Source: a virus. From it: a DNA stretch of 40,569 bases. Shown here one piece after another: positions 8,384 through 40,569 of this stretch; within the stretch, counting starts at the first letter, position 1, and every line of letters starts with the position of its first letter. The stretch lies in the IMG/VR virus record IMGVR_UViG_3300026962_000013, positions 1 through 40,569 of that record. One strand, 5' to 3'. A program made the translations under genes and the position numbers. A model generated the notes under the pieces. That model was not told the DNA's origin, searched no databases, and was given only the letters and a program-made list of their open reading frames with translations.

Positions 8384-10282
8384 ATGAGATCTGATCCATC
8401 GTCGAACGGCGAGCATCACCCAGAGGGTGATGACCAGCCACCGCTCCGCGGAAACGCCGACTTCGACCAGGGCCTCCGGATGGGCATCGCCGCGGCACTC
8501 GGCCACTCGGGCTTCGACGATCGCGACCGCTACGACGTCTTCGGATGGGAGGCCGACCCCGACGAGGACGAGTACCTCGGGCTCTACCTCCGAAACCCGT
8601 ACGCCCGGGCCGTGGTCGATCGACCGGCGACGGCCACCTGGCGCCACGCGCCGGACGTCGTCGACGATGCCGAGTCTGACGAGGCGACGGAGTTCGAGAC
8701 GACTGTCGAGAAACTGCAGCGGAGCCACGACGTCGACAGCTACGCGGAGCGCGCGGACCGCCTCGCGGGCATCGGCGAGTACGGTCTGCTGTTCATCGAC
8801 TTCGACGATACGGAGGAACTCGAGGACCTCGAGGGAGCCTACGATCCCGAAGACGCCACCCTCGACTCCATCCGTGGCTTCCGCGTCTACGCGCAGGCCC
8901 AAATCGACGACATCGACTACGGCGACTTCGGCGACGACCGCTGGGGGCGTCCGAAGTACTACCACGTCGACCTGACCGAAGACATCGACGACGACGCCGA
9001 CGAGGACGGCTACGCGAAAATCCACCACTCCCGGGTGGTCGCCGTGCCGAGTACACAGCTCCTCGACGACGAGGACAAGGCCCGCCCCCGGCTCGAGCCC
9101 GTCCTCAACCCGCTCTACGACATCGAGAAGACGCTCGGCGCCGTCGCCGAGGCAGCATACTCGAGCGCCAACTCCGACATCTGGCTCAACCAGAACCCCG
9201 ACCAGGTCGACCCCACCGACAACGACAATCTCCGCGACGAGTTCATGCGCTTCTACCACCAGGGGCAGCCCTTCCTCCGGACGGTCGGGTCCGACGTCGA
9301 GCAGCTTTCCGGTGAGGTGCAGGACCCGTCGGGGCTGATCGACACGGAGCTCTCGGCGATTGCCGCGCAGACGGGCATCCCGAAGCGGATCCTCTCGGGC
9401 GACGCTGCAGGCGAGCTCTCCGCGAGCCAGGAGGACACCCGACGCTGGTACGCCCGCATCCGCGAGCGTCAGCAGCAGTACGCGGCGCCGCTCCTCTTCA
9501 GGCCGCTGATCGACATGCTTCGGGAGTACGGCATCCTGCCGGAGCCCGCTGGCGGCACCTACGAGATCGGCTGGCCGGAGCTCTACGAGCCGACTGAGCA
9601 GGAGATCGCCGAGCGGCAGCAGGCTCGCAGCGAGACGGCGCGAAATCTATCGCAGGTGGCGCCGGGCTTCTCGGGTGACACGGCGATCGACTACATCGAG
9701 ACTGGCGAGTTCCCCGAGGAGGAGACGACGGCGGAGCTGGAGGACATGGACGAGGACGACCCCGACGTCAGCGCCCAGTTCCGTCGGCAGTACCTCCCGG
9801 ACGCCGTCGGGAACGCGACGCGCTACACCGAGGGCGACCAGGTGATGACCCCGCAGGGAATCGGCGTGGTCGCCGAGGTTCGCACCGAGCCGTTCGAGGG
9901 CAAGAACGGCGAGATCGAGGCCAGCGACTCCTCTCCCGTCTACGTCGTCGGGCTCAAAGACGAGCGCGTCGGCGTCGGGTTCTACACGGCCAGTGAGCTC
10001 GAGGCTGACGAGATCGAGACTGATGTCGAGGACCCGGTCGGGGACGTTCGCGCGAACGCCTGCGTCGGTCGCGACGACGTAACCGCGAACGACTGGTCGA
10101 TGCCGGAGAGCTGGCGCGAGTCGGACACGCCGGCGCGGCTGATCCTCCTCGACGCATGGTCGTCGATGGGAGGCCAGTTCGACTGCGGTGGCGGCTGTTG
10201 CATGGGCGAACTGAAGTCCCGCCGGCTGTGCGCCTCGATGAAGGACGAGGTGCTCGGCGGCTGGGAAGGCTGGCGGAGATGA
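8384..10282 (+). CDS. Portal protein with C-terminal extension
   Basis: RNPYARAVVDRPA and AAQTGIPKRILSG...ASQED..WY..I..RQ portal motifs; about 170 aa extra C-terminal region. Confidence 0.9.
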   Translation: MRSDPSSNGEHHPEGDDQPPLRGNADFDQGLRMGIAAALGHSGFDDRDRYDVFGWEADPDEDEYLGLYLRNPYARAVVDRPATATWRHAPDVVDDAESDEATEFETTVEKLQRSHDVDSYAERADRLAGIGEYGLLFIDFDDTEELEDLEGAYDPEDATLDSIRGFRVYAQAQIDDIDYGDFGDDRWGRPKYYHVDLTEDIDDDADEDGYAKIHHSRVVAVPSTQLLDDEDKARPRLEPVLNPLYDIEKTLGAVAEAAYSSANSDIWLNQNPDQVDPTDNDNLRDEFMRFYHQGQPFLRTVGSDVEQLSGEVQDPSGLIDTELSAIAAQTGIPKRILSGDAAGELSASQEDTRRWYARIRERQQQYAAPLLFRPLIDMLREYGILPEPAGGTYEIGWPELYEPTEQEIAERQQARSETARNLSQVAPGFSGDTAIDYIETGEFPEEETTAELEDMDEDDPDVSAQFRRQYLPDAVGNATRYTEGDQVMTPQGIGVVAEVRTEPFEGKNGEIEASDSSPVYVVGLKDERVGVGFYTASELEADEIETDVEDPVGDVRANACVGRDDVTANDWSMPESWRESDTPARLILLDAWSSMGGQFDCGGGCCMGELKSRRLCASMKDEVLGGWEGWRR

Positions 10283-21954: not shown

Positions 21955-23399
21955 TGACTGCCGGCGCGACCTTCAACGCGGAAGTCACCGACGTCGGGAG
22001 CAGCAGCGTCGATGAACGCGGGTTCGTCTGGGATACCACGTCGCACGGGGGCCCCGGAGATACGGCGCCGTCGTCGTCGGCGTATGCGTCGTCGTGGACC
22101 GAGACCGGCACCTTCTCAACGGGGACGTACATCCACGACGAAACCACGCTATCCGAGAACACGACGTACTACTATCGCGGCGTCGCTCACAACGGTGACG
22201 GGTGGGGGTATGGTGATGAGGTCAGTTTCACGACGCCGGAACTCGCCGCGCCCACCGTCTCGTTTTCGGATACGACGACGGAGGACGAGTTGTCGGTGTC
22301 GTGGACTGATGTGAGTAACGAGGATGGGTACCGGGCCCTGATTTCGTCGTCGAGCGGGTCGACGGCGTCCGACTACGTGGTCGATGCTGATTTGGCGGCG
22401 GGGACGACGTCGCACACGTTCACGGGGTTGCCGGACGGGCGGCGGCGATTCGTCCGGATCGAGGCGTACACCAGCGGTGGGTCGACAGAACTGTCGAACG
22501 AGATCGATGCCGTCACCGTTCTCCCCGCACCCACGGACCTCTCGGTTGATGCGGTGACTGGCGACAAGTTCGAGGTGTCGATGGTGGATAACGCGGATTC
22601 GAAGGATGGGTATCGGTTCTACACCGGGCCTGACGGGTATCTGGAGTTCAATCGAGCGAATAGCGAGGAAGTAATTGTCCCCCACGATTCAACCGTAGAA
22701 CCGGATAGGTACGCAATCTACGTTGAGGTCAATATCCCCGATGTATCTATTGACCAAGGCATAGTATCAAAACGGCAGGCGAATATCAGTTCACCGTATG
22801 TTGTCTATATCTTGAATGGACAGGTTAATTTGGATGCGAATATTAATGGAAATTGGCATTCGGCTCTTGTGTCTGCCCCGTCTGATATTAATCGAGTTGT
22901 CGCTTACTATGACGGTTCTGAAATCGGTGTCAACGTCGATGGAACGACGGATGCCGACACAAACCCCTCCGGGGGAACTCCAACAGGAAACGGCGACGAC
23001 GTATCAATCGGGAACGAGCCCGGACGTTCAGATACAGGATACTTAGATGGCGATGTGGAGAGGTTAGCGATGTTTGGCACATCTCCTACGCAGTCAGAAA
23101 TTGATAACTTCATCAATAATGGACAGATGCCGAGTGGGGGGGACCCGCGTATGTGGTACGAATTTAATCAGGGCTCCGGCTCCACGCTGACCGACTACTC
23201 TGGCAACGGCAACGACGGCACCCTCCAGAACAGTCCAACCTGGCACGGCGGCGGGGCGCTCACGCAGGACGGGGAGGTGACCTCGACAGTCTCGGCAGGG
23301 TCAACAGTCACCTACACCACGACGAACCTCTTGGACGGCGAACGATACGTCATCCGCGGGTCGACCTTCACCACCGAAACCGAGGTGTACGACCACTAA
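21954..23399 (+). CDS. Tail-tip adhesin with FN3-like domains and inserted LamG/ConA-like domain
   Basis: FN3 motifs (VSWTDV..EDGYR); LamG motifs (WH...YDG, IGN...YLDGDVERL, MWYEFNQGSG...DYSGNGNDG). Confidence 0.8.
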   Translation: MTAGATFNAEVTDVGSSSVDERGFVWDTTSHGGPGDTAPSSSAYASSWTETGTFSTGTYIHDETTLSENTTYYYRGVAHNGDGWGYGDEVSFTTPELAAPTVSFSDTTTEDELSVSWTDVSNEDGYRALISSSSGSTASDYVVDADLAAGTTSHTFTGLPDGRRRFVRIEAYTSGGSTELSNEIDAVTVLPAPTDLSVDAVTGDKFEVSMVDNADSKDGYRFYTGPDGYLEFNRANSEEVIVPHDSTVEPDRYAIYVEVNIPDVSIDQGIVSKRQANISSPYVVYILNGQVNLDANINGNWHSALVSAPSDINRVVAYYDGSEIGVNVDGTTDADTNPSGGTPTGNGDDVSIGNEPGRSDTGYLDGDVERLAMFGTSPTQSEIDNFINNGQMPSGGDPRMWYEFNQGSGSTLTDYSGNGNDGTLQNSPTWHGGGALTQDGEVTSTVSAGSTVTYTTTNLLDGERYVIRGSTFTTETEVYDH

Positions 23400-26137
23400 T
23401 GCCCGTCACCGCCACCACCACCCTCCCCGACGCCCAACAACCAACGCTCGACACCACGACCGAAAACCAGATTGGCGCGTCCTGGACCGACGTCACCGAC
23501 AACGGCGACTACCGCATCCAACTCCGACAAACAAGCGACTCGACCTGGTTCGACCAAGAAACCCTCGTCGACCAAGCAACCACGACAACCACGTTCACCA
23601 CCCTCCTCGACGGCGAACAATACGAACTCCGCCTCCGAACCGAGACCGAACACGTCACCGGCGCGTGGACGTCGCCCGTCGCCGCGACGACCATCCTCCC
23701 CGCCCCAACCGACGCCACCATCCGCCTCAGCAGCTGGGACCGACAACACCTCACGTGGACCGACAACGCCGACAACGAGGACGGGTATCGCATCACATAC
23801 GACGGCACAGTCCTCGCCGACCTCGCAGCAGACACCACCACCTACGAAGCCACCTCGATCACCCCAACCAGCGGCCAATCCCACACTTTCACGATCGAGG
23901 CGTACACCGAAGACGCGACTGCATCCACCACCGTCGCGGAAACCATCGACGAAACCCGCGTCATACTGAACTGGCAGGACCCACCACAATCCCAAACCGG
24001 ATTCAAGATCTACGAGTCAACGGACGGGGGAACCACGTACTCGGAGATCGCGGACGTCGCCGCATCCACCCGCCACTACGAAACCCGGGACCTCATCCCC
24101 AACACCAACGACCACACCGACTACACCTACCGCGTCGACGCGTACAACGGCGGCTCCACCACCCTCTGGAGTCTCCTGGGGACCACGCAATCCATCGCGT
24201 CCACCGAGTCGTATCAACTCGTCTTACGCGACGACGGCAGCCTCCGCACGGTCACCGACCTCACTAGTGTCAGTCCCGCCCGCACGCACACGGGGAAAAG
24301 CGACTTCCGCGCCGTCACCCCGTACGACACCACGCTCGAACCCTGGGCATTCGCCGACGCCTTCCTCTACTACCAGGACACGTTCCTGTTCCGCGGCCGC
24401 TTCACCACGATCAGCAGCGACGAAGCCCAGGGCACCACCACCCTCGCCGGGGATGGCATCGCCGGCGACTTAGAACACGGGTCCGCCACCACCACCTACA
24501 CCCAGACCCCGGTGTGGGAGGCGATCGACGACTACTGGAGTACGTACACCCCGTTCACCGCATCGACCACCCAACCCACGCCATCCACGGTCGCGACCGA
24601 CGACCAGGTCCAGGAGGCCGACACCACCACCGAACTCGAATCGATTACGACCCTCGCCGCCGACGACCCAGTCACCATCACCAACGGCGAGCTGCACCTC
24701 GCGCCGATCGCGTTCGTCACCGAAGCCGAAAACTACACCGCGAACAACGGGACCGGCGACGTCGCCGACGGCGTGTACAGCGGCGGCACCGCCGAGGAAC
24801 TCATCAATCAAGGGGAGTGGTTCGAAATCCAGTTCGACCCCGACCACGACATCCCCGGGGAAGACGTTGGATTCTACACGCGATTCCGCTCGGTCACCGG
24901 CGCCTCCGAGATCACCTACCGCCTCTACGAGGACGGCGCCGAAGTCGCGAACTGGGTCGTCACCCAGGACACCGACACCTATAGCAGCGTTGAATGGGCC
25001 GACCTCGCGTACCTCCGCGGCACCGGCTCCCGGAACTACCCCGACCACGACATCAGCGCCGCGAGCACGTACACGCTCCGCGTCGAGGCGACGACCACCG
25101 AGGACGGCATCGAATTCGACGTCATCGCCGTCGCCGACACGCGATACGCCCAAAGCGTCGACAATCTCGACAACGACAACGGCGGCACCGGCGGCTACTT
25201 AGACGACCCCCGGCTGTTAGCCGACGCCATCACCGTCACGTTCGACGAGGTCCAACGACCGTACAACGTCACCGGCGCGTCGGCCGACGTCACCGCCGCC
25301 GACACGTCCGCCCCGTTCGCCATCGCCTTCTCCAACGACGGCGGCACCACCTGGGAACCAGACCCGGGGACGACGACGCCCACCGCAACGTTCGCAGCCT
25401 CGTATGGGACGCGAATCCAGGCGCGGGTCACCCTCGGCGCATACGGAACCCGGTCGTCTGCCACCCCGAAACAGGGGTATCTGGGCCAAACGCTCGGGGA
25501 TTGGGACCTGTTCGTCGACGGTGACGACTTAGCAGTGATCGACTCGATGACCGTCGAACAGGACCACCTGAAGAACCTGCAGAAACTCCACGACTACGGC
25601 GACCACACCTTCGTCCCCAAACACGACGAAGACGAACTGAAAGCCGAGTCGTTCCGCGCCGGCACCAAATCCGCGACCGCGTCCTGGACGACGACGAACC
25701 GCAGACGCACCATCGACTACACCGACTACGCGAACAAGATCACGGTCAAAGGCGAAACCCAGGCGAGTGGCGCCCGCGTCGAAGCCACGGTCAGCTACGA
25801 CGCCGAAATCAATTCGGTGGGAGAGGTCCATCGCACGGTCATCGATCCGACACTCGGCTCCCACCAGGAGTGCGTGTCGCGAGCGCGGAGCCTCCTCGAG
25901 GAACGCGTGGCCTCGAAAGAGGTCACGGGGTCCATCCAGGTCTTCCCTACCCTGGTCGATCCGGGGTACGTGTACTCGGTGTCAGAGTGGGGTGTCGACG
26001 TCGAGTTGGAACAGGTGACGTACTCGGTGTCGGGGGAGTCGGCGCGGGGGACGTTATCCTTCGACGTCGAGGACGATGTGGCGGACTTGCTGGCTGGGCT
26101 GCGTCGGGAGACCCAGCGCAGCCAAAGCGTCCTGTAG
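23399..26137 (+). CDS. Large tail-tip/hub protein with N-terminal FN3 repeats
   Basis: Three FN3-like repeats, then hub-like C-terminus (YANKITVKG, PTLVDPG); 912 aa. Confidence 0.8.
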   Translation: MPVTATTTLPDAQQPTLDTTTENQIGASWTDVTDNGDYRIQLRQTSDSTWFDQETLVDQATTTTTFTTLLDGEQYELRLRTETEHVTGAWTSPVAATTILPAPTDATIRLSSWDRQHLTWTDNADNEDGYRITYDGTVLADLAADTTTYEATSITPTSGQSHTFTIEAYTEDATASTTVAETIDETRVILNWQDPPQSQTGFKIYESTDGGTTYSEIADVAASTRHYETRDLIPNTNDHTDYTYRVDAYNGGSTTLWSLLGTTQSIASTESYQLVLRDDGSLRTVTDLTSVSPARTHTGKSDFRAVTPYDTTLEPWAFADAFLYYQDTFLFRGRFTTISSDEAQGTTTLAGDGIAGDLEHGSATTTYTQTPVWEAIDDYWSTYTPFTASTTQPTPSTVATDDQVQEADTTTELESITTLAADDPVTITNGELHLAPIAFVTEAENYTANNGTGDVADGVYSGGTAEELINQGEWFEIQFDPDHDIPGEDVGFYTRFRSVTGASEITYRLYEDGAEVANWVVTQDTDTYSSVEWADLAYLRGTGSRNYPDHDISAASTYTLRVEATTTEDGIEFDVIAVADTRYAQSVDNLDNDNGGTGGYLDDPRLLADAITVTFDEVQRPYNVTGASADVTAADTSAPFAIAFSNDGGTTWEPDPGTTTPTATFAASYGTRIQARVTLGAYGTRSSATPKQGYLGQTLGDWDLFVDGDDLAVIDSMTVEQDHLKNLQKLHDYGDHTFVPKHDEDELKAESFRAGTKSATASWTTTNRRRTIDYTDYANKITVKGETQASGARVEATVSYDAEINSVGEVHRTVIDPTLGSHQECVSRARSLLEERVASKEVTGSIQVFPTLVDPGYVYSVSEWGVDVELEQVTYSVSGESARGTLSFDVEDDVADLLAGLRRETQRSQSVL

Positions 26138-26176: not shown

Positions 26177-26362
26177 ATGACCGATTACAGAGTAGAGAGC
26201 GACGGTGAGTTCGTCGACGATCCATCGGATCGGGTGTGGCGGTGTCCGGCGTGTGGGGTGGGGTACGTGGTTGGGGTGGAGCTGGTGACGGCTCACTACA
26301 TCGGGCGGGCGATGGCGTGTACGAATCCAGGCTGCCGATATTGGGAGCGTGTCATCCAATAA
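26177..26362 (+). CDS. Small CPxCG zinc-finger protein
   Basis: CPACG...CTNPGC; 61 aa. Confidence 0.65.
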   Translation: MTDYRVESDGEFVDDPSDRVWRCPACGVGYVVGVELVTAHYIGRAMACTNPGCRYWERVIQ

Positions 26363-26420
26363 ATGGGCCTCTTCGTTTGACTCTAGACATCCGCAAATGG
26401 AGATTTGTTGGATTCCCCAA

Positions 26421-26430
26421 ATTATAAAAT
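26421..26430 (+). promoter_or_regulatory. TATA box for leaderless transcript of proteasome-like gene
   Basis: ATTATAAAAT centred about 29 nt upstream of ATG 26454. Confidence 0.7.
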
Positions 26431-26453
26431 CAACCCTGTTTGAGTCATCGAAT

Positions 26454-27308
26454 ATGACTGTGGGGATCGGAGCAATCTCAGAGTACGAATCCGAAGAACC
26501 CAAGGTCGTAATTTCATCAGACCGATTAGTCACCACCCATCAACAGTCCGCTATTGAACATGAGAGACCAGAAAAGAAGATCAAGGAAATTGCCGTTGAT
26601 CTCCATAATACCCATCTCGCCGGTGTGATCGCTGGTAGCGTTCAATTGGGGGAGGAATTTGAAGACAAACTTGAATCTGCCCTACACGCTTGGGTAAGAG
26701 AGCACGAGACAGAGCCCTGGGTGCAGACGGCAGCAAATATTGCAGGCGAGACATACCGTGAGTTCGTACAGGAAAAAATTGAACATGCAGTTCTACAACC
26801 TTATGGATTAGAAATTAGCGATTTAAGTAAACAGCATAAATTCAAGGACAGTTTTTTCCAAGATGTTATGAGCGAGGTACAACAGTTCAGATCTCAGGTC
26901 CAAACAAACCTCGTGCTTCTACTTGGAGGGGTCGCGGATAAGGGGGCCGGCCTTTACGAAATCAGGTCAAACGACGTTCTGTTTCAGAACGACATGGGAT
27001 ATGCCACAATTGGTAGTGGCACCCAACCCGCGAAATCGGAGTTCATTAAAACGGAATACGGTAAATCCTGCCCCCTCTCGGAAGCGTTAGCGACCGTAGC
27101 TGCCGCGAATTATCAAGCGCAACGTGCAAGCGGCGTCGGAGGATCACCAGATATCATCATCGTGGACTCCGATGGGGTACATGCTTTAGATGATGGAGTA
27201 CGAAAGCGTTTGATGGACCGGCAAGAGGACATCGATGATCGACAGGAAGAAATCAAGCACAACATTCTTGATGAGAACGAAATTACGTGGAGGTCAGGGG
27301 GAACATGA
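26454..27308 (+). CDS. Proteasome-beta-like Ntn hydrolase
   Basis: M-T-V-G-I-G...VISSDRLVT N-terminus (Thr1 after Met removal) and YATIGSG motif; lower GC than flanks. Confidence 0.8.
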   Translation: MTVGIGAISEYESEEPKVVISSDRLVTTHQQSAIEHERPEKKIKEIAVDLHNTHLAGVIAGSVQLGEEFEDKLESALHAWVREHETEPWVQTAANIAGETYREFVQEKIEHAVLQPYGLEISDLSKQHKFKDSFFQDVMSEVQQFRSQVQTNLVLLLGGVADKGAGLYEIRSNDVLFQNDMGYATIGSGTQPAKSEFIKTEYGKSCPLSEALATVAAANYQAQRASGVGGSPDIIIVDSDGVHALDDGVRKRLMDRQEDIDDRQEEIKHNILDENEITWRSGGT

Positions 27309-28757: not shown

Positions 28758-28879
28758 CGGTGACCACGTACACCGTCTCGTTCAGGGGCGTCGAGATGCT
28801 GGTGTTCGACGCGGCGCTGGCGGAAGCACTCGCACGGGACGGGCATCGCGTCACGGCCGCCACGCGGAGTGATGTCTGA
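28754..28879 (+). CDS. Small hypothetical protein (41 aa)
   Basis: Translated by hand; coupled on both sides. Confidence 0.55.
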   Translation: MTVTTYTVSFRGVEMLVFDAALAEALARDGHRVTAATRSDV

Positions 28880-29094
28880 TGGAGGTGAGTGCCGAACTCC
28901 TCCCCGACCACCCCATAGCCGTGATCACCGCCGACACCACCCACCCGGAATGGGGCGTCCACAAGGGCGAACCGATCGGGTTCCTCTGTGTCGAGTGTAA
29001 GAACATGGACGAGGACGTCGCCGAGATCATTCATGAAGAAGATTGTTCTCTTGCTGGAAAATCCAAACCAACCGCGTATGCGAATCGACCATAA
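28879..29094 (+). CDS. Small Cys/His-containing hypothetical protein
   Basis: CVEC...H...C; TGATG coupling. Confidence 0.6.
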   Translation: MEVSAELLPDHPIAVITADTTHPEWGVHKGEPIGFLCVECKNMDEDVAEIIHEEDCSLAGKSKPTAYANRP

Positions 29095-29154: not shown

Positions 29155-29703
29155 ATGACAGACGATGGGATGAATGAAGATGAGGACAAAGTTGCGGTGG
29201 ACGCGGGTAGCGTAACGGAAGCATCAGTAAAAGCCCCCAAGCCGAGCGTAATCCTTTATCCTGGCGATCAACTCAGGGATCGACGTAATGGAATCATTCA
29301 GCACCATTATCGGCATTCCGAGATTCCATTGGACAAATTGCGGGCATTCATCATCTACGCATCCGGTGTAATCGAGGTATATTGTACTAAGTTAATTCGA
29401 GAGGAGGTCATCGCGGCGGATTACCAACATCAAGCGTATTCATATTTGCTTGAGGATATGAGTCAGACCCACCGGGAGTCTCTATTATCTCAATGCGATC
29501 TATTTGATGATTCACTTTGTGGTAGCCTTGGCAATTTTCGTGGATTGAGGAATAAGCTCGCTCACCAACCGCATGATCCTATTGATTGGGATGAAGAGAA
29601 CGTTCCGAGTAAAATGACTCTGGGCATCGATATTATCGATGTACTCTATGAGGCGTTGCGTAGTGGCGACGCCTCAGAAAGCCTCTCAGATCATTCGCTT
29701 TGA
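29155..29703 (+). CDS. HEPN-domain protein (putative RNase)
   Basis: Helical protein with RNKLAH (R-x4-H) motif; low GC, AT-rich upstream region. Confidence 0.7.
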   Translation: MTDDGMNEDEDKVAVDAGSVTEASVKAPKPSVILYPGDQLRDRRNGIIQHHYRHSEIPLDKLRAFIIYASGVIEVYCTKLIREEVIAADYQHQAYSYLLEDMSQTHRESLLSQCDLFDDSLCGSLGNFRGLRNKLAHQPHDPIDWDEENVPSKMTLGIDIIDVLYEALRSGDASESLSDHSL

Positions 29704-30280: not shown

Positions 30281-30334
30281 CCCGGCTCCCGACCCGACAT
30301 CCTCTTGTACACAATCCACCCTACCACTACCCGC

Positions 30335-31066
30335 ATGGGGGTCACGGACGCGGAACTCCTCGCGGAGATCCGTCGCCTCGCCGACGACATCGGTGCCACA
30401 CCCACGCTCCAGCAGATGCGGGACCACGGCCAGTACTCGGTCACCACCTACTACAACCACTTCGACTCCTGGAGTGCCGCTGTCGAAGCCGCCGGGTTCG
30501 AACCCCATCAGCAGGACACGAAACACGAAACGGAGGACCTCCTCGCCGAACTCAGGCGCCTCGCCAGCGAACTGGGTGCCGTACCGACAGCTGCCCAGAT
30601 GAACGCTGAAGGCAAGTTCTGGGCGAATTCGTACCAGAACCACTTCGGATCCTGGCGAGCGGCGCTTGAGGCAGCCGACCTCGAACCGCGGGATCCCGAC
30701 ACGCGAATTGATCCCTCGGCCCTGATCGAGGACTTACAACGGGTCGCCGACGCGGTCGATGGTTCGCCGTCGGAGGCTGACGTCCGCGAGCATGGGGAGT
30801 ATGGGGTGCGAACGTTTTATCGACGGTTTGGGTCGTGGGGGAACGCTCTCGAGGCGGCGGAATTGGGGGATGACGCCTTTCAAGAGCGGATTCCGATTCG
30901 AGAGTTGTTGGTGGAGGTGCAGCGCTTGGAGGCTGCGTTGGGGCGGCCGCCGTCGACGGTCGACGTTCGGGAGCGTGGGCGGTTCTCGTTGGCGCCGTAT
31001 TATCGGCGGTTTGGGTCGTGGGAGCAGGTGTTGGAGGCGGCTGGGATCGACCCTGGCGACGATTGA
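30335..31066 (+). CDS. Homing-endonuclease-associated (HNH_repeat) protein, four repeats, no nuclease domain
   Basis: Four ~57 aa units: LL.E..RLA...G..P.......G.....Y...FGSW..A.EAAG. Confidence 0.85.
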   Translation: MGVTDAELLAEIRRLADDIGATPTLQQMRDHGQYSVTTYYNHFDSWSAAVEAAGFEPHQQDTKHETEDLLAELRRLASELGAVPTAAQMNAEGKFWANSYQNHFGSWRAALEAADLEPRDPDTRIDPSALIEDLQRVADAVDGSPSEADVREHGEYGVRTFYRRFGSWGNALEAAELGDDAFQERIPIRELLVEVQRLEAALGRPPSTVDVRERGRFSLAPYYRRFGSWEQVLEAAGIDPGDD

Positions 31067-31496
31067 TTTTTGTATTCTAAGGTGTATGGTGTGATGCCGG
31101 GTTCAATCCCGGTGCGGTGAGTGGTTGGGTGTTGTACCTCAGGCGCTCATCGCGGGCGTAGTACAGGCCCTTCGGGTGCCTGGGCGTCGAGTCAGGCGCC
31201 GCCCAGCTGACTGGCAACGTACTGTCGGTCGGTATTGGGGGTCCCCACCCCCACTTTAAATACCTCACTCGGTTTCAGAGGGTTGGTATCGTGTGGTCGG
31301 ACGGGATGATATCGGGGGATTGAAGCGTCGTGCGACTTGTTTACACACTGAATACAGTACCACAAAGCATTTACAAACCCCAATAAGACGTATTTGGTGT
31401 ACCCCTACCCAGGTGGCAGCCACGCCGGCAACGATGGAACGTGATGAACGGGGTATCGGACGCTGTCGCCACGACAGACCGACCACACAACAAACT

Positions 31497-33869
31497 ATGA
31501 CAGGCAAAATGACAAAGATGCGCGCGGTGTTCCTGACCGCGATCATGGTCCTCTCTGTATTTGGAGGCACCATCGCGTTCACAGGAGCTGCTGCCGCATC
31601 CGGTCATCACATCAACAAAGCCACCTACTACACAGAAGGTGGCACAGGTACGCCGCTCATCGAGCTGGCGTACGCTGATGACATCAACGCGACAAACGCA
31701 TCGGCAGGCAACTGGACAGTAATGGTCGACGGCTCCCCGGCGGAAATCGTCAACGGGACTGACGTTGCCGTCAACGGTGGTCAGGTTGAGCTCACGCTCA
31801 GCCAGAACTACACCGGTGACATCAGCGTCGAGACACCCGAGGTCGAGAACACCACGGGTAGCGCCATCCCGAGCATGACCGTCGACGTCACGGAGACCGA
31901 CGCCACGCTCAACATGGGCGCCGGCGGCTCCATGACGGCCTTCTCCGGGTCCGTCGTGGCCGTAGACTTCGGCACGACCGGTGTCAACTTCGACATCACC
32001 ACCGAAGGTGGATACTTCTTCCAAGGGTCCACCGGCACCTCGAGCCAAGTCTACGTCTTCAACACGGGATCCAAGACGGCCGGCACCTACTACGTTGACA
32101 CAGACCGCGACCAGGACGACGGCAACGGTGACGCCGAGATCGTCGTCCGCGCCCTGGACCTCTCGGTGAGCGCGCCGAGCGAGGTCTCGACTGAGTCGGC
32201 GTTCCCGGTCTCGGTCAGCGCGAACGCCGGCGACCGCGACGTCGAGGTGTCGCTGCTCGGTCCCGACGGGGCCGTGGTCGACAGTGGGTCGGCCACCCTC
32301 GACGGGTCCGGTGAAGCCACCGTGTCCCTGACGTCCGGTTCCGCTGAAGGCAACTACAGCGTCGTCGTCGAAGACGTCGCTACAGGCAACCAGGACTCCA
32401 CAACCGTCTCGGTTGTCTCCGGACCGAGCGCTCAGATGAGCTTCCCGTCCGGATCCTTCGCTGGGGAGCAGGGTGACTTCGCGTACATCACGATCAACCT
32501 GCAAGGCACCAGCGTTGGTACAATCTCGCTTGGCGGTGAGGAGACGAACTACCAGATCAACGCGACCGTGACCGACGCGAACGGTGACGGTCAAGTTGTT
32601 CTGATGTTCAACACCTACACTGCCGGCGACACCAGCGCCGACACGCTCTCGGCCGCCGGGGCCGACACCGTCTCACTCGTCGGTAACGAGTCGAGCCTCG
32701 GTGACATCATCGACACCGGAGCCTACGTCATCTACGGCCAGGCCAACGACTGGAGTGGTGACATCTCCGAAGTCCGTGACACGCCGGGTGCGACGAGTAC
32801 GCTCCTGGTTGAGTCCCGGTCCACTGGTTCGATGAACCTCTGGGAAGCGCCCAGCGGGTCGAGCCTCACGAGCCTCACGGCGATTCAGGACGCCGTCTCC
32901 GCCGGTACCCTCACCCAACTCCAGGGTGGGGTCGCTGGCGGTGACGTCCTCGTTCACCAAGTGAGTGTCTCCGGCATCTACGGCATGCTGGCCTCGACGG
33001 GCGATGCCACCACGACGGCAGCCTTCGAGACCGCCATCGGCAATGGCAACCTGGCCCTTACCGTCACCCAGACGAACCCCGGCCAGAACCAGCAGCCGAA
33101 GACGCTGAACCTCACGGAGAGCATCGACGCTGGCGCGATCCACGTCGTCGCAAGTGACGTCGACAACCAGGTCTTCATTGTCGTCGAAACGGACCAGGCC
33201 GTCTTCGACCGTGAAGGCCAGGGGACGACGAACTTCAGCGCCGAGGCCGGCGATGAGTTCGACGTCCAATTCGAAGTGACTGACACCAAGCTGCCCGCTG
33301 ATGCAGATGGGTCAGACGCTGCGGCGGCGAACTTCAGCGTGGTCGCTGGCACCGCCATGGTGAACTACCAGGGCGATGCCTTCCAGGTTGAAGCTGAGGA
33401 GAACGTCACGGTGTCCGGGTCGTCCACGTGGGCGCCGGGCACGACGCTGACGGTCCGGGTCAAGAGCGACGGTGGCGTCACGCCGGCGTTCTTCACCCAG
33501 GCCGACGTCGTCGTCCAGCCGGACGGCACGTGGAGTCTCACCAGCAACGTGTTCACGAACGCGAGTGCTGACTCGCCGTTCACGATCACGGTGTTCAAGG
33601 GTGGGAACGTTGTGACGCAGGCGCCGGGTGAGGTTGTCGACTCGACGACGACCACCACGACCTCGACCACGACGACGACCACCACGACGACGACCACCAC
33701 GACGACTACGACGGAGACCACGACCACGACCACGGAGACCACGACCACGACCACGGAGACCACGACCACGACCACGGAGTCCGGTGACGGCGGTCCGGGC
33801 TTCACGGTCGCGCTGGGTCTCGTGGCCGTGCTCGCGGCTGCCCTGCTCGCGGTGCGGCGCCGCGCGTAA
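31497..33869 (+). CDS. csg: S-layer/cell-surface glycoprotein homolog with PGF-CTERM
   Basis: Signal peptide RAVFLTAIMVLSVFGGTIAFTGAAAA, many NxS/T sequons, Thr-rich linker, GPGF-TM-RRR C-terminus; 790 aa from ATG 31497. Symbol denotes homolog, not proven orthology. Confidence 0.88.
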   Translation: MTGKMTKMRAVFLTAIMVLSVFGGTIAFTGAAAASGHHINKATYYTEGGTGTPLIELAYADDINATNASAGNWTVMVDGSPAEIVNGTDVAVNGGQVELTLSQNYTGDISVETPEVENTTGSAIPSMTVDVTETDATLNMGAGGSMTAFSGSVVAVDFGTTGVNFDITTEGGYFFQGSTGTSSQVYVFNTGSKTAGTYYVDTDRDQDDGNGDAEIVVRALDLSVSAPSEVSTESAFPVSVSANAGDRDVEVSLLGPDGAVVDSGSATLDGSGEATVSLTSGSAEGNYSVVVEDVATGNQDSTTVSVVSGPSAQMSFPSGSFAGEQGDFAYITINLQGTSVGTISLGGEETNYQINATVTDANGDGQVVLMFNTYTAGDTSADTLSAAGADTVSLVGNESSLGDIIDTGAYVIYGQANDWSGDISEVRDTPGATSTLLVESRSTGSMNLWEAPSGSSLTSLTAIQDAVSAGTLTQLQGGVAGGDVLVHQVSVSGIYGMLASTGDATTTAAFETAIGNGNLALTVTQTNPGQNQQPKTLNLTESIDAGAIHVVASDVDNQVFIVVETDQAVFDREGQGTTNFSAEAGDEFDVQFEVTDTKLPADADGSDAAAANFSVVAGTAMVNYQGDAFQVEAEENVTVSGSSTWAPGTTLTVRVKSDGGVTPAFFTQADVVVQPDGTWSLTSNVFTNASADSPFTITVFKGGNVVTQAPGEVVDSTTTTTTSTTTTTTTTTTTTTTTTETTTTTTETTTTTTETTTTTTESGDGGPGFTVALGLVAVLAAALLAVRRRA
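33641..33779 (+). repeat. Thr-codon tandem repeat encoding the S-layer linker
   Basis: (ACG/ACC)n with ACCACGACCACGACCACGGAG units. Confidence 0.9.
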
Positions 33870-34292: not shown

Positions 34293-34574
34293 TTAGGCGT
34301 CGTCGCGTGGTTCGAGGGTCGTGGGGTCGAGGTCGCCGGTCAACCAGTTGCGGCCGTCGTCGGTGATTTGGTAGAGGCCGTCGTCGAGGCGGCGTACCAA
34401 CCCGTATCGGGTGAGGGTTCGGAGTCGGTCGCCGGCGTATTTGCGGGTGATGTCGGCGCGGGCGACGCGGCCCTCGCGGCTGATGGCGAGCGGGGTCATG
34501 TTGCCTTCGTCGCGGAGGAGTTCGAGGATGCTGTCGTCGGCGGGGCGGCGCATCCAGTCCGCGTCTTGCCGCAT
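34293..34574 (-). CDS. PhiH1-repressor-like winged-helix protein (switch 2)
   Basis: MRQDADWM...DDSILELL...MTP...RL..L...GLV......GLYQITDDG..WL.G.LD pattern; ATG 34574. Confidence 0.85.
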   Translation of the reverse strand: MRQDADWMRRPADDSILELLRDEGNMTPLAISREGRVARADITRKYAGDRLRTLTRYGLVRRLDDGLYQITDDGRNWLTGDLDPTTLEPRDDA

Positions 34575-34605
34575 GTGTGGGGGTGTTCGCACTGGGTGGT
34601 TAATC

Positions 34606-34803: not shown

Positions 34804-35208
34804 ATGTCAAACAACGACAACGCCCACCTTAAACGTGGGGCCATGACCGCCATCGCCGGTCCCGACATCGAAGACCGGCCCAGCACCGACCGCACATCGT
34901 ACCCCCGCGACGAACTCACGCGATACCAACTCGACCTCCTCACCACCGTCAGCCGCCTCACCGCCTCGGGGTCGAGTCCCTCAGGCCTCGAACTCAAAGC
35001 CGACCTCGAATCCGCATACGGCGTTGAGACCAACCACGGGCGCCTGTACCCCAACCTCGACACCCTCGTCGACAAGGGCCTCGTCCAGAAAGGCGTCGCC
35101 GACGAACGCACCAACACCTACGACCTCACCCCCGACGGCGCCCGAGCACTCCTGGACTACCACGACTGGCTCTCCAGCGCCATCACCACGGGTGGTCCCG
35201 ATGAGTGA
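34804..35208 (+). CDS. PadR-family winged-helix regulator
   Basis: LTRYQLDLL...GLELK..L...Y...NHGRLYPNLDTLVDKGLV.K...D.RTN.Y.LT. Confidence 0.88.
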   Translation: MSNNDNAHLKRGAMTAIAGPDIEDRPSTDRTSYPRDELTRYQLDLLTTVSRLTASGSSPSGLELKADLESAYGVETNHGRLYPNLDTLVDKGLVQKGVADERTNTYDLTPDGARALLDYHDWLSSAITTGGPDE

Positions 35209-35415: not shown

Positions 35416-35836
35416 GAAAACCATCTCCGGATGGTTGATCATCGACTGGCAACAGGGCAGTCACCGCACCCGGAAGTCCAAACCCGGCGCCGCCGAACTC
35501 GGGACGAACGAACTCGTCGCGGAACTCACCGTCGACGTCAACGTTCCCGAGGTCGAGGTGCCGGAACTCGCCGTCGAGATCGACGTGCCCGAACCCCACG
35601 TCCACGCCGCGACGTTGGAAGCATTAGACGATGAGCAGCTCCCGGGGTGGACGGACATCGCGAACGACGTGATCGAACCGCCGATCCCCGGCGATTATGT
35701 CGAGTTCCAATCCGAAGTGGATTCGGTGTCGATGCAGGTGTTGACCAAGGCATCGACACGTCCAGATCCGGAGGCGGTTCGGGACTACGTTGGGGAGACG
35801 ATGCGGGAGGTTGCCGGAGGGGTTGCTGATGAGTGA
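35408..35836 (+). CDS. Hypothetical viral protein
   Basis: Acidic; coupled. Confidence 0.75.
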   Translation: MPEKTISGWLIIDWQQGSHRTRKSKPGAAELGTNELVAELTVDVNVPEVEVPELAVEIDVPEPHVHAATLEALDDEQLPGWTDIANDVIEPPIPGDYVEFQSEVDSVSMQVLTKASTRPDPEAVRDYVGETMREVAGGVADE

Positions 35837-35984
35837 TGTTGGGTTCACCCAGGGCATCGAGACGAAAGACCTCGTCAGCGGGTGGGCCGGCATCGTCCAG
35901 TTCGCCGACGGCACCGCCCGCAAGGTGTGGGCTCCCACCGAAGCCAGAGCTCGAGCGAAAGCCCAGGAGGTCCTCGATGAGTAA
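35829..35984 (+). CDS. Small hypothetical protein
   Basis: Coupled on both sides. Confidence 0.55.
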   Translation: MSDVGFTQGIETKDLVSGWAGIVQFADGTARKVWAPTEARARAKAQEVLDE

Positions 35985-36867
35985 AAGCGCCACCGCCCAG
36001 TCGACGTGCCCCGAATGCCAGGGCGCACTCGACGACACCGGCAACGAAACCACGTGCCGGAGCTGCGGCTTGGTCGTCGACGAACAATGGATCGACCACG
36101 GCCCAGACTGGCGCACGTTCGACGGGTCCGACCAAGACCAGCGTCGGGTCGGGGCGCCACGCACGCCCAGCCTTCACGACCACGGCCTCGGCTCCAGCAT
36201 CGGCCACGACTCGGTCGCGACCGGATCGAAACGACAGCGAATCGGTCGGCAACGGAGTCTGCACAAGCAATCGAAGTTCGCAACGAAAGCGGAGCGGAAC
36301 CAGGCGTATGCCCTCAGTGAAATCCGTCGCATCGCCGGCGCCCTCGACCTCGCCGACAGCCTCCGGGACCAAGCCGCCCAACTCCTCAAAACCGCGCAAG
36401 GCCAGAACCTGATCCAGGGACGGTCGCTGGAGGGGTTCGCCGGCGCCTGCCTGTACGCCGCCTGCCGGATCAACGGTCTACCCCGAACCCGCGAAGACAT
36501 CGACGCGTACAGTCGTTGCACACCCAGTCAGTTGGAGAACGGGTACGAGGCCCTGCAACGCGACCTCGGCATCGGCGCGGCCCCGATTGATGCGAAGGCC
36601 TACATCCCACGGTTCGCGTCCGAACTCGACGTCTCGGACAGCGTCGAAAGACGGGCGACGACGCTGTGCGACGCATGGACGGACGCCAACCCCTGTTCCG
36701 GGCGAGCGCCCAGCGGCGTCGCCGCAGCCTGTCTCTACTGCGCCATCCAGGAGCAAGACGGCGACATCACCCAGGGCCACGTGGCCGCGGTGGCAGATAC
36801 AACGCCGCATACGTTGCGTGATACGATCGTGGACCTCCGCGACCTCACAGGGGGTGAGGACGCGTGA
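35977..36867 (+). CDS. tfb: Transcription initiation factor B homolog
   Basis: CPEC...CRSCGLV Zn ribbon, IDHGPDWR B-reader, RVGAP, LHDHGL, two cyclin repeats (GRSLE..A.ACLYAACR; GRAPSGVAAACLY). Confidence 0.95.
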   Translation: MSKSATAQSTCPECQGALDDTGNETTCRSCGLVVDEQWIDHGPDWRTFDGSDQDQRRVGAPRTPSLHDHGLGSSIGHDSVATGSKRQRIGRQRSLHKQSKFATKAERNQAYALSEIRRIAGALDLADSLRDQAAQLLKTAQGQNLIQGRSLEGFAGACLYAACRINGLPRTREDIDAYSRCTPSQLENGYEALQRDLGIGAAPIDAKAYIPRFASELDVSDSVERRATTLCDAWTDANPCSGRAPSGVAAACLYCAIQEQDGDITQGHVAAVADTTPHTLRDTIVDLRDLTGGEDA

Positions 36868-37052
36868 ACCTCGTCTTGATCGGTGTGCTCGTCATCCTCT
36901 CGTTCGGGTCGACCGTCGGGGTCTTGACCGCGTACAGTCACGGGTACCGCCGCGGGTACGAGGAGGGACTGTTCGCCGACCGCCGCGTCCGGGTCGACGA
37001 CCTCAACGTGTCCCTGCTGGACGACGCCGACGAGGATGGGGGGTGGGAGTGA
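36864..37052 (+). CDS. Small membrane protein
   Basis: N-terminal hydrophobic helix; GTGA overlap. Confidence 0.6.
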   Translation: MNLVLIGVLVILSFGSTVGVLTAYSHGYRRGYEEGLFADRRVRVDDLNVSLLDDADEDGGWE

Positions 37053-37756
37053 TGCTCGCCGGCACCATCGCCCGACTTCAGCACCCGGTTGACTCACTCC
37101 TCGAGGACCACCACCGAGGCGGGGCGCTCCCCGCGTTGAGCGTCGAACAAACCCAAACCCGTGTCGACGATCCTCCGGTGCAAGCTGGGTCAGCCGCCAC
37201 CACCATCGAGACGCAGGCGATCGACGCCATGGTCCTCGAAGACACCGACACCCCCGGTGTCTTGCACACCGAACAGGTGGCGTCGACGACCACCATCGTT
37301 GCCGACTGGGTGGCCGACGTCACCGGCACCGGGTTGGTCGTTGCCAGCACCACGGACGGCGACGATCGGTGGGCGTTCCCGTACGGGTTGGTCGCGAACC
37401 AGACCGGGGAACGCTTGGACCGTCTCGAGATCGACGTCACCCAGATGCACGCGGCGTGGAGTAGCGACGACGACCTGGGCGACGTGTGGATGACTGGGGC
37501 CAGTGACGACGATGACGCGACCCAGATCCAGTACCACGACGCCGCCGACATCGAGACGCGACCGACCATCGGCATGGGGTTCACGCGGCCCTGGGGTGGC
37601 ACGGTCGTACGCGGCATCGTCTACCAAAGCGGGTACGTCGCCATCTACAGCGCGGAGACACCAGCCACGTTCATCGGGTTCCTGGAGGAGTGCATCCTCC
37701 CGTATGTGGAGGCCCATGATGGGGAGATGCAGTCCACGTTGTCGGAGGTGAGCTGA
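37052..37756 (+). CDS. Hypothetical viral protein
   Basis: ATG 37052; acidic 234 aa. Confidence 0.75.
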   Translation: MLAGTIARLQHPVDSLLEDHHRGGALPALSVEQTQTRVDDPPVQAGSAATTIETQAIDAMVLEDTDTPGVLHTEQVASTTTIVADWVADVTGTGLVVASTTDGDDRWAFPYGLVANQTGERLDRLEIDVTQMHAAWSSDDDLGDVWMTGASDDDDATQIQYHDAADIETRPTIGMGFTRPWGGTVVRGIVYQSGYVAIYSAETPATFIGFLEECILPYVEAHDGEMQSTLSEVS

Positions 37757-39180: not shown

Positions 39181-39331
39181 TCACACCCACGCCAAAGACC
39201 CGCAGGACATGACCGACGAAGAACTCGTCGAAACAATCCGCAACAGCGACCTCGAACTCGCCACCGTCGCCGACGAACTCGAAACCCTCCTCGAACTCTA
39301 CGACGATGTCCCCGGAGGCGACTCCTCATGA
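39170..39331 (+). CDS. Small acidic protein (53 aa) overlapping the integrase 3' end
   Basis: Translated by hand; GGAGG SD upstream. Confidence 0.55.
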   Translation: MASSHTHAKDPQDMTDEELVETIRNSDLELATVADELETLLELYDDVPGGDSS

Positions 39332-40569
39332 CCCCCGCGAACCCGATCCAACACCGCCCCCACCAACCGCTGCTCGAACGTCGTCAACTCCCGCTCGGAG
39401 AGATCCGCCGCGGCACTCGCCTGAATCTCATCGACCGACGCCTGCGCATCCGGCGCATGCGGCAACACCTGATTGCACCACATGCACACCGGGTGCTCCC
39501 GCGGAGTCTCCCGACCACACCGCGGACACTCCACCGGTCCCGTTGCCTCCCCCGTCTCTTCAGCGACGTCGACACCGTGGGCCTTCGCGATCTCCCGCCG
39601 ATTCGCATCGTCGAACACCGCGATGTACCGGCTCGCCACCTGCGACCCGCTCACCCACCCATGATGCTGCTCCAAATGCGCCTGACTCACGCCCTGCGAC
39701 GCCAGGAACGATGCACTACTTTTCCGCAGTCGTCGCGGCGTCGGCGACGCCGGCGGCACCATCTCCGCCGCCGCAGCCTTCTCCTTGATGATGTCCCTGA
39801 CCCGGTTATTCGAGATCGGGTCACACGCGTTGACCCGCGTCCACAAGGCCGTGTCCGAACCCCTGTCAGCCGGGTGGTCACCCAACCACTGTCGCACGTA
39901 CGGCGCGCTCGGGATCAGCAACGGGGAGCGCGTCCCCTGCTTGCCCTGGTGGAGCGTCACCCGCATCCCGAGGTCGTCGTCGGTGAACCGGTCGACTGTG
40001 AGGTCGAAGAGTTCGCTGGGTCGCGGTCCCAGGTCCCACGCCAACGCGATGAGGCATCGGTCGCGACTGTTGTGACACGCGTCCAGCATCGGTTGGATGT
40101 GCTCCTCCCATCGATACATCTCCTCGGGGGTCGGTGCCGGGTCGTAGGTGCTCGGGTAGCCGCCGGGGATCCAGTCTATGGAGTCGGGTTTCCCGTCGTT
40201 GTCGGTGCCGAGGTCGCCGAGCATGCGGAGGGTGACGCGGTAGTCCTTGTTGGATTCGGGGTTGTCGTAGGTTTGGTGGATCCAGCGGACGATGGCTTCG
40301 GCGGCGTCGCGGTCGTGCATGGCGTCGACGAGTTCGTCGGTGTGTTCGGCGATGCGGATGCCGCGTTTGAGCAGGAATTCGTGGCGTTGGTCGCTGTATT
40401 GGCTTTTGCCGAGGAGGTCGATTTCGTCGCTGACCTCGAGGAGGAGGTCGGCCTCGTCCGCGGTGATGGGGTCGTCGGGGTCGAGGGTGGTGAGTCGGTC
40501 GCGCATGCTCTGGATTTGGCTGCGTGGGTAGTCGGTCACGGGTTGGGCAGAGACACCGGCGGTGGGCAT
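39298..40569 (-). CDS. int: Tyrosine integrase (SNJ2-like) with C-terminal Zn ribbon
   Basis: LGPRPSEL, GKQG, PRRLRKSSAS, HHGW, SRYI catalytic motifs; CPRC...CMWC; true start may be GTG 40539 (MTDYPR). Confidence 0.92.
   Translation of the reverse strand: MPTAGVSAQPVTDYPRSQIQSMRDRLTTLDPDDPITADEADLLLEVSDEIDLLGKSQYSDQRHEFLLKRGIRIAEHTDELVDAMHDRDAAEAIVRWIHQTYDNPESNKDYRVTLRMLGDLGTDNDGKPDSIDWIPGGYPSTYDPAPTPEEMYRWEEHIQPMLDACHNSRDRCLIALAWDLGPRPSELFDLTVDRFTDDDLGMRVTLHQGKQGTRSPLLIPSAPYVRQWLGDHPADRGSDTALWTRVNACDPISNNRVRDIIKEKAAAAEMVPPASPTPRRLRKSSASFLASQGVSQAHLEQHHGWVSGSQVASRYIAVFDDANRREIAKAHGVDVAEETGEATGPVECPRCGRETPREHPVCMWCNQVLPHAPDAQASVDEIQASAAADLSERELTTFEQRLVGAVLDRVRGGHEESPPGTSS

Follow-up and report, generated by a model that had tools for sequence, protein, structure and literature searches.

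IMG/VR virus record IMGVR_UViG_3300026962_000013, analysed here over its whole length of 40,569 bases (the window), carries a complete and intact gene for a surface-layer (S-layer)-type surface glycoprotein, with every processing signal present. The gene is cargo in the variable slot of a single provirus of the BJ1/Humcor1 type, with the tail-fibre gene on one side and the repressor/PadR/integrase block on the other, and it is preceded by what we infer to be a promoter and leader of the kind used by the S-layer glycoprotein (csg) genes of haloarchaea. Genes of the same family, with the same promoter boxes, stand in the same slot of two Halorussus proviruses. S-layers are known receptors of haloviruses (PMC13437554, PMC10599561). 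We give a probability of about one half to the reading that such an intact virus-borne gene would alter the surface of the lysogen, as a form of lysogenic surface conversion or superinfection exclusion.

An intact S-layer-type glycoprotein gene

Translation from the ATG at 31497 gives a 790-residue protein whose beginning agrees with the consensus N-terminus of its family, where M1 and R9 are nearly invariant; a longer open reading frame (ORF) that starts with GTG at 31293 is probably not in use. An earlier reading of this DNA from its letters alone (the sequence-only reading) had placed the gene at 31360-33869. The end of this span is correct, while 31360 marks the promoter and not the start of the coding sequence. 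The same reading had listed a Sec signal, glycosylation sequons, a Thr linker and a PGF-CTERM signal, and all of these are indeed there. The signal peptide matches TIGR04207 at residues 7-34 (44.2 bits, cut-off 24.6) and the sorting signal matches TIGR04126 at residues 762-789 (36.1 bits, cut-off 24.5), both in NCBIfam; at the C-terminus the Pfam entry PF18204 falls narrowly short, with 18.7 bits for a cut-off of 18.8. The ectodomain contains DUF7827 (PF25162 of Pfam) at residues 311-413 (E = 5.6e-22; 78.5 bits, cut-off 27) and the BGTF surface domain NF045517 of NCBIfam at residues 627-715 (64.5 bits, cut-off 40). We counted 14 N-X-S/T sequons where about 7.8 are expected from the composition of the protein, which has 93 acidic residues and 19 basic ones. 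The 47-residue Thr-rich linker is presumed to be an O-glycosylated stalk, and the T-rich tract TTCCTTTCTTTC, found shortly after the stop codon, is a possible archaeal terminator. With TIGR04207, NF045517 and DUF7827, and with PGF-CTERM following a Thr-rich linker, the protein falls within the broad haloarchaeal S-layer/BGTF surface glycoprotein family.

It is, moreover, a true member of the S-layer glycoprotein family. An exhaustive HMMER search gathered 729 related clusters, among which the best full-length identity was 38%. Identity to real S-layer glycoproteins is 34-38%, and a Haloferax gibbonsii S-layer glycoprotein cluster (P0016, UniProt A0A0K1IRS6) is one of the top matches. All 30 of the 30 aligned relatives have matches to NF041335, the profile for ArtA-dependent S-layer glycoproteins, and to NF045517. 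The window protein itself aligns with positions 147-861 of NF041335 at 345 bits, against an equivalog cut-off of 1100, a score too low for it to be filed as a main S-layer protein. Of its earlier description as having the hallmarks of the "major" cell-surface glycoprotein, the family holds and the rank is not supported. "Full-length" must be qualified as well: about 100 N-terminal residues of the Halobacterium/Haloferax gibbonsii type are missing (profile positions 1-146 are unmatched), but the gene is intact, and the shorter N-terminal form occurs naturally in several family members, which align from residue 1.

The closest known system is the ArtA-dependent Csg of Haloferax gibbonsii (A0A0K1IRS6), which is 38% identical to the window protein over residues 35-699 and has the same type of signal peptide, a BGTF/DUF7827 Ig-like ectodomain, a stalk and PGF-CTERM. 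The genes for ArtA-dependent S-layer glycoproteins also share the csg-type promoter and leader with the window gene; they are chromosomal, whereas the window gene is encoded by a provirus. The csg product of Haloferax volcanii (HVO_2072, structure 7PTP, family TIGR04216) has an Ig-like domain array as well, but the window protein does not belong to the HVO_2072 type: it scores 48.8 bits where TIGR04216 requires 400, and it does so over the C-terminal half only.

The AlphaFold2 model of the 790-residue protein has a mean predicted local distance difference test (pLDDT) value of 82.5 and consists of an all-beta array of beta-sandwich domains, with pLDDT below 50 across residues 718-775. Its best structural match is the in-situ S-layer protein of Haloferax volcanii, 7PTP (Z 13.1, root-mean-square deviation (rmsd) 7.7 over 383 residues), which spans model residues 149-719 and has the highest TM-score among the Foldseek matches; the Z-score is tied with those of other multi-Ig proteins, though the rmsd is much lower for 7PTP. 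As a sign of a role in an S-layer lattice, this likeness is only suggestive. No PDB chain was matched by the sequence of the window protein, and a fold search against viral models gave generic Ig-array matches only.

A probable promoter and leader of the csg type

The sequence-only reading had seen a TATA-like sequence about 125 nt upstream of the gene and had proposed a long leader as in host csg genes, a proposal that the comparison of many genomes bears out. The TATA-like TTTACAAA (31370-31377), 127 nt before the ATG, is contained in the element CACAAAGCATTTACAAA; 21 nt after the latter, and 98 nt before the ATG, is a conserved box, GTACCCCTACCC (31399-31410), of which there is no second copy within the window. 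The whole arrangement at 31361-31410, that is CACAAAGCATTTA, 25 nt and GTACCCCTACCC, recurs with both boxes, spacing included, ahead of 14 further S-layer-family genes (12 chromosomal and 2 proviral) in at least 10 genera, which include Halorussus, Haloarcula, Halomicrobium, Halosimplex, Halomarina, Natronomonas, Halogeometricum and Halobellus. Since TTTACAAA is part of a promoter and leader conserved upstream of S-layer genes in so many genera, it is no chance look-alike. The window gene carries the signature as we define it in this analysis, there being no published criterion: CACAAAGCATTTA, 24-25 nt and GTACCCCTACCC, some 90-120 nt before the ATG. Across genomes the signature is often followed by ATGG.G.CAG, and it occurs in several haloarchaeal families.

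In 29 haloarchaeal genomes the GTACCCCTACCC 12-mer has 65 matches, compared with about 11 for a reversed control. In 12 of the 29 genomes a chromosomal S-layer-family gene has one of these matches directly upstream, and the gene so marked is the top-scoring family member in 8 of these 12; the signature could be a marker for the main csg gene. The 12-mer also has 1-5 further copies elsewhere per genome. When IMG/VR was scanned for the promoter pattern, a single match came up, an unrelated chance one. If 31361-31410 acts as a csg-type promoter and leader, as its conservation suggests, the viral gene would be transcribed like the S-layer gene of the host.

One provirus with a variable cargo slot

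IMG/VR classes the record as a provirus, CheckV estimates it to be 85% complete with the left end missing, and the ends of the record were placed by the predictor at gene borders. BJ1 (NC_008695) and Humcor1 (MW344765), two Halorubrum viruses of the Graaviviridae, have the same genome plan, variable slot included, and integrases 45-46% identical to that of the window. The order of their genes is kept in the window (portal, capsid protein, tail fibre, repressor, PadR, ORF23-like, integrase), and five further relatives keep it too; the small ORF at 28879-29094 is common to these five. Conserved viral genes therefore flank the S-layer-type gene, at 2.4 kb on the left and 0.4 kb on the right. We call the element a Graaviviridae-like temperate head-tail virus on the grounds of this colinearity of portal, capsid, tail-fibre, repressor/PadR and integrase genes with BJ1 and Humcor1, and not of proteome clustering.

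Virus-type genes had been noticed on both sides from the start, and host DNA lying between two proviruses had been named as the case that would undo the interpretation; the colinearity of the flanking genes with BJ1, Humcor1 and the five other relatives makes that case very unlikely. Nothing that could split the window in two, whether a tRNA, an attachment (att)-like sequence or a meaningful internal repeat, was found. A tRNA-like stretch at 31090-31125 (GCCGGGTTCAATCCCGG) was suspected to be an internal att remnant and was rejected: neither ARAGORN nor Rfam recognised anything in it, it has no direct repeat partner, and the hairpin that it could form with 31037-31055 is no stabler than those of shuffled sequences (z = -0.41). 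The start codon of the integrase reaches the final base of the record. Since the attP of Humcor1 lies 5 bp, and the att repeat of the relative G019 34 bp, upstream of the integrase start, the att site of the window provirus should lie just past its right end.

In BJ1 and Humcor1 the slot has no S-layer-type gene; its cargo there includes, for example, an ion-channel-like protein, YbaK and a glycosyltransferase. In the window it holds several other genes. Two of them (26349-27308 and 29155-29703) have a G+C content at third codon positions (GC3) of 0.45-0.47, against 0.8-0.9 elsewhere, and look like recent foreign cargo; one is weakly proteasome-beta/HslV-like and the other matches RiboL-PSP HEPN weakly. 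Directly upstream of the S-layer-type gene, 30305-31066 encodes four homing-endonuclease-associated repeats (PF18780, E = 1.6e-82), with no nuclease domain detected. Outside the slot, in the early/regulatory block that runs from PadR to the integrase, 35833-36867 encodes a TFIIB/TFB homologue with a zinc ribbon and two cyclin repeats (PF00382, E = 5e-35); as listed, this ORF overlaps the one at 36587-37756 by about 280 nt.

Table 1. Positions in the window of the S-layer-type gene, its parts and signals, and the conserved viral genes around it
Feature	Position	Strand	Basis or remarks
Tail-fibre gene, left conserved viral landmark	23399-26137	+	37% identity to BJ1 ORF67 and Humcor1 HrrHm1_105; fn3 domains
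Small ORF, nearest conserved viral gene on the left	28879-29094	+	57% identity to G002 and 40% to G003 (IMG/VR relatives)
BRE/TATA-type promoter element (BRE, transcription factor B recognition element), CACAAAGCATTTACAAA	31361-31377	+	Conserved upstream of S-layer-family genes
Predicted 5' leader, about 98 nt, opening with GTACCCCTACCC	31399-31496	+	Start inferred from TATA spacing
S-layer-type glycoprotein gene	31497-33869	+	ORF, 790 residues
Sec-type haloarchaeal surface-glycoprotein signal peptide, residues 1-35	31497-31601	+	TIGR04207
Ectodomain, array of all-beta Ig-like domains, 14 sequons	31602-33641	+	Family matches, AlphaFold2 model
Thr-rich (S/T/E) linker, residues 716-762 (47 residues)	33642-33782	+	Sequence composition, low pLDDT
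PGF-CTERM sorting signal (PGF, transmembrane helix, RRRA) and stop codon	33780-33869	+	TIGR04126
T-rich tract TTCCTTTCTTTC, about 45 nt past the stop codon	33914-33925	+	Read from the sequence
Winged-helix repressor-like gene, 0.4 kb right of the S-layer-type gene	34293-34592	-	46% identity to BJ1 ORF20; matches in Humcor1, G003, G005, G008
PadR-family regulator	34804-35208	+	PF03551, E = 7e-12; 45% identity to BJ1 ORF21, 43% to Humcor1 PadR
ORF23-like gene	36587-37756		Match to BJ1/Humcor1
Tyrosine integrase	39298-40569	-	PF00589; 46% identity to BJ1 integrase

Recurrence in Halorussus and independent capture

The family profile was used to scan 61 regions surrounding related integrases, of which 14 came from IMG/VR and 47 from genomes, and then 29 whole genomes; synteny was compared by BLASTP of ORFs, tblastx being too noisy in these GC-rich genomes with acidic proteomes. 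Two further proviruses with an S-layer-type gene were found in this way. That of Halorussus sp. AFM4 (NZ_JBNTJT010000001.1, about 622.5-664.3 kb) is 41.8 kb long, has 24-bp direct repeats at its ends and contains, in order, terminase, portal, tail tube, a 1602-residue fn3 tail fibre, an S-layer-type gene for 849 residues and, later, PadR and integrase. That of Halorussus marinus LYG-36 (NZ_SBIV01000006.1) has a tail fibre, an S-layer-type gene for 791 residues and a truncated integrase beside host housekeeping genes. Each of these two genes is intact and carries the promoter boxes. As in the window, an S-layer-type gene with a csg-type promoter occupies the slot between tail fibre and integrase, in the same orientation; in the two Halorussus proviruses it adjoins the tail fibre, whereas the window gene is separated from it by 5.3 kb occupied by other genes.

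The 24-bp repeat of the AFM4 provirus, GGGTTCGGAGCCCTCCCCGGGCAT (L079:7552-7575 and L081:11321-11344), resembles the attP of Humcor1, which corresponds to the 3' end of a tRNA-Met gene. ARAGORN calls no tRNA at either end of the AFM4 provirus, and the att target may be an intron-bearing tRNA gene. At the start of the LYG-36 contig (L095:6393-8765 and 9051-9476) the integrase is truncated and frameshifted and there is no repressor/PadR block, while the 791-residue gene is intact; this provirus may be a domesticated remnant.

Overall, the coding regions of the AFM4 and LYG-36 proviral genes share 50% and 64% identity (48% and 58% in BLASTP) with the boxed chromosomal gene of their own host. Identity is 37% between the two proviral proteins and 21-27% between these and the window protein. 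In a tree obtained by a quick search with Shimodaira-Hasegawa-like approximate likelihood ratio test (SH-aLRT) support, each provirus/host pair is joined with a value of 100, the window protein stands elsewhere on a long branch, and the label "proviral" needs three changes. Because each Halorussus proviral coding region groups with the S-layer gene of its own host, the captures were separate, and the comparison shows at least three occasions on which such genes passed from host lineages to viruses.

The promoter and leader give a different picture, with 72% identity between the two Halorussus proviral copies and 58-60% between provirus and host; DNA homology of the proviral to the host gene begins only some 20-30 nt before the ATG. 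This pairing of provirus with provirus upstream, and of provirus with host in the coding region, is a hint, from a small sample, of cassette replacement. We suggest tentatively that one lineage of temperate haloarchaeal tailed viruses may keep a dedicated csg-type expression site, its promoter plus leader passed on with the virus, in which the S-layer coding cassette is replaced at times by recombination with host csg alleles, a process that would switch the receptor surface of the lysogen and spread S-layer alleles between strains. On present evidence this remains the less likely course of events.

Outside these three proviruses, no relative of the protein was found in 50,697 GenBank phage records, and IMG/VR contained no close relative by protein or by profile (the only usable pattern of the profile was the signal peptide). 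Some related integrases, in Halomicrobium katesii and Haloarcula pellucida, lie near S-layer genes that were not counted as viral: these are the hosts' own top-scoring csg genes, with no virion genes nearby. In Halomicrobium katesii (G021, C1 about 2816.7-2834.2 kb, loci L083/L084) the integrase is part of an element of 17.5 kb that also encodes MCM and has a candidate att pair of 14 bp, CCCTCCACCGGCTT; csg lies 3 kb from this element and outside it, and virion genes were not observed. S-layer or PGF-CTERM cargo goes unmentioned in the surveys of archaeal proviruses and tailed viruses that we consulted, and a 2026 review on S-layers and virus specificity mentions neither proviruses nor virus-encoded S-layer proteins.

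What the gene might do

The reading that we favour, surface conversion or superinfection exclusion, supposes the following course. The S-layer-type gene would be transcribed in the lysogen from its host-type promoter, independently of the viral late genes. Its product would be exported, N- and O-glycosylated and lipid-anchored by the archaeosortase ArtA, so that a second, divergent S-layer glycoprotein would be displayed in or on the host S-layer. This would change the surface that serves as receptor for tailed and pleomorphic haloviruses, and the lysogen would therefore adsorb the same and related viruses less well. Because two related proviruses have captured such genes independently, the virus probably re-coats its host.

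Several findings weigh against this reading. BJ1, Humcor1 and 13 related IMG/VR records (found through their integrase, with a positive control run) have no such gene, which implies that it is optional and serves no core virus function. As a general cargo region, the slot also contains low-GC3 genes of unrelated kinds. The NF041335 score lies far below the equivalog cut-off, and a library of 15 billion proteins has nothing more than 38% identical to the window protein at full length. The interpretation offered by the sequence-only reading is, as a whole, partly supported.

Four other explanations were ranked after it, in the order passive cargo or allele shuttle, accessory protein outside the lattice, aid to egress and mis-bounded host DNA. 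The slot after the tail genes may simply collect host DNA, in which case the virus would merely shuttle S-layer alleles between strains, perhaps aiding surface variation of the host. We regard this as unlikely, even though much of what the slot contains fits it: the proteasome-beta-like, HEPN-like and HNH-repeat genes that share the slot are unrelated, most relatives have no S-layer-type gene, and the Halorussus marinus gene is intact though the integrase of its provirus is truncated. S-layer genes are, besides, hypervariable between strains, with 54% identity within Halorubrum lacusprofundi, a variability tied to virus pressure (PMC6011602). But with about 60 integrase-linked loci scanned, three independent captures of this kind of gene into one slot are more than random pick-up would give, and all three copies are intact, with promoter, signal peptide and anchor retained. 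Distinctly less probable is that the product is no lattice subunit and instead an accessory surface protein (an adhesin, a biofilm or cell-cell contact protein, a vesicle-shed decoy) built on the S-layer-family chassis, like the BGTF paralogues of haloarchaea. The sub-threshold NF041335 score would agree with this, as would the long branch of the window protein, without close kin, and the up to 11 family-profile matches per haloarchaeal genome, several of which are parts of one gene. The promoter argues otherwise, since in the 12 genomes with a boxed chromosomal gene the box marks a single family gene, in most cases the one with the top score, and leaves the other paralogues unmarked, and the Halorussus viral copies pair with just this boxed gene of their hosts.

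The slot after the tail genes is, in many siphophages, the site of the lysis genes. A protein made late, together with the tail, might act as a "poison" subunit that weakens the S-layer for the escape of virions; the position of the gene downstream of the tail genes and on their strand, its place directly after the tail fibre in both Halorussus proviruses and the lack of recognised lysis genes in the window all speak for such a function. We consider it a slim chance, since the gene has a host-type promoter of its own, since intergenic gaps of 335 to about 840 bp follow the tail fibre in the two Halorussus proviruses and 5.3 kb of other genes do so in the window, and since secretion and glycosylation would probably be slow for a lysis timer. 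There is very little likelihood, finally, that host chromosome was wrongly included in the predicted provirus or lies between two separate elements. The record ends were indeed set by a predictor, no att site lies within the window, and in Halomicrobium katesii and Haloarcula pellucida the distance between a related integrase and a non-viral S-layer gene of the host is 11-20 kb. Yet conserved virus genes stand on both sides in the order seen in BJ1, Humcor1, G003, G005 and G008, no internal att-like repeat or tRNA was found, and the equivalent gene of AFM4 lies inside 41.8 kb bounded by att repeats.

Surface conversion and superinfection exclusion are known from bacterial prophages, through modification of the O-antigen by the gtr genes of P22 and SfV or through lipoproteins such as Llp of T5 and Ltp of the Streptococcus phage TP-J34. 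The logic proposed for the haloarchaeal proviruses is the same, namely a product of a temperate virus at the surface of the lysogen that alters or masks a receptor. Unlike in the bacterial systems, the archaeal cargo is a copy of a structural protein of the cell wall, derived from the host together with its promoter, and its function is a proposed one.

In most haloarchaea the cell wall consists entirely of the S-layer, which is also the receptor for those haloviruses whose entry has been studied. If lysogens are indeed re-coated in the manner proposed, the proviral S-layer-type genes would represent an archaeal equivalent of surface (O-antigen) conversion by phages, and they could help to account for the strong differences among the S-layer genes of different strains. 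AFM4 and LYG-36 are listed as strains and not as metagenome bins, and each has a host and a proviral copy, which makes the idea directly testable.

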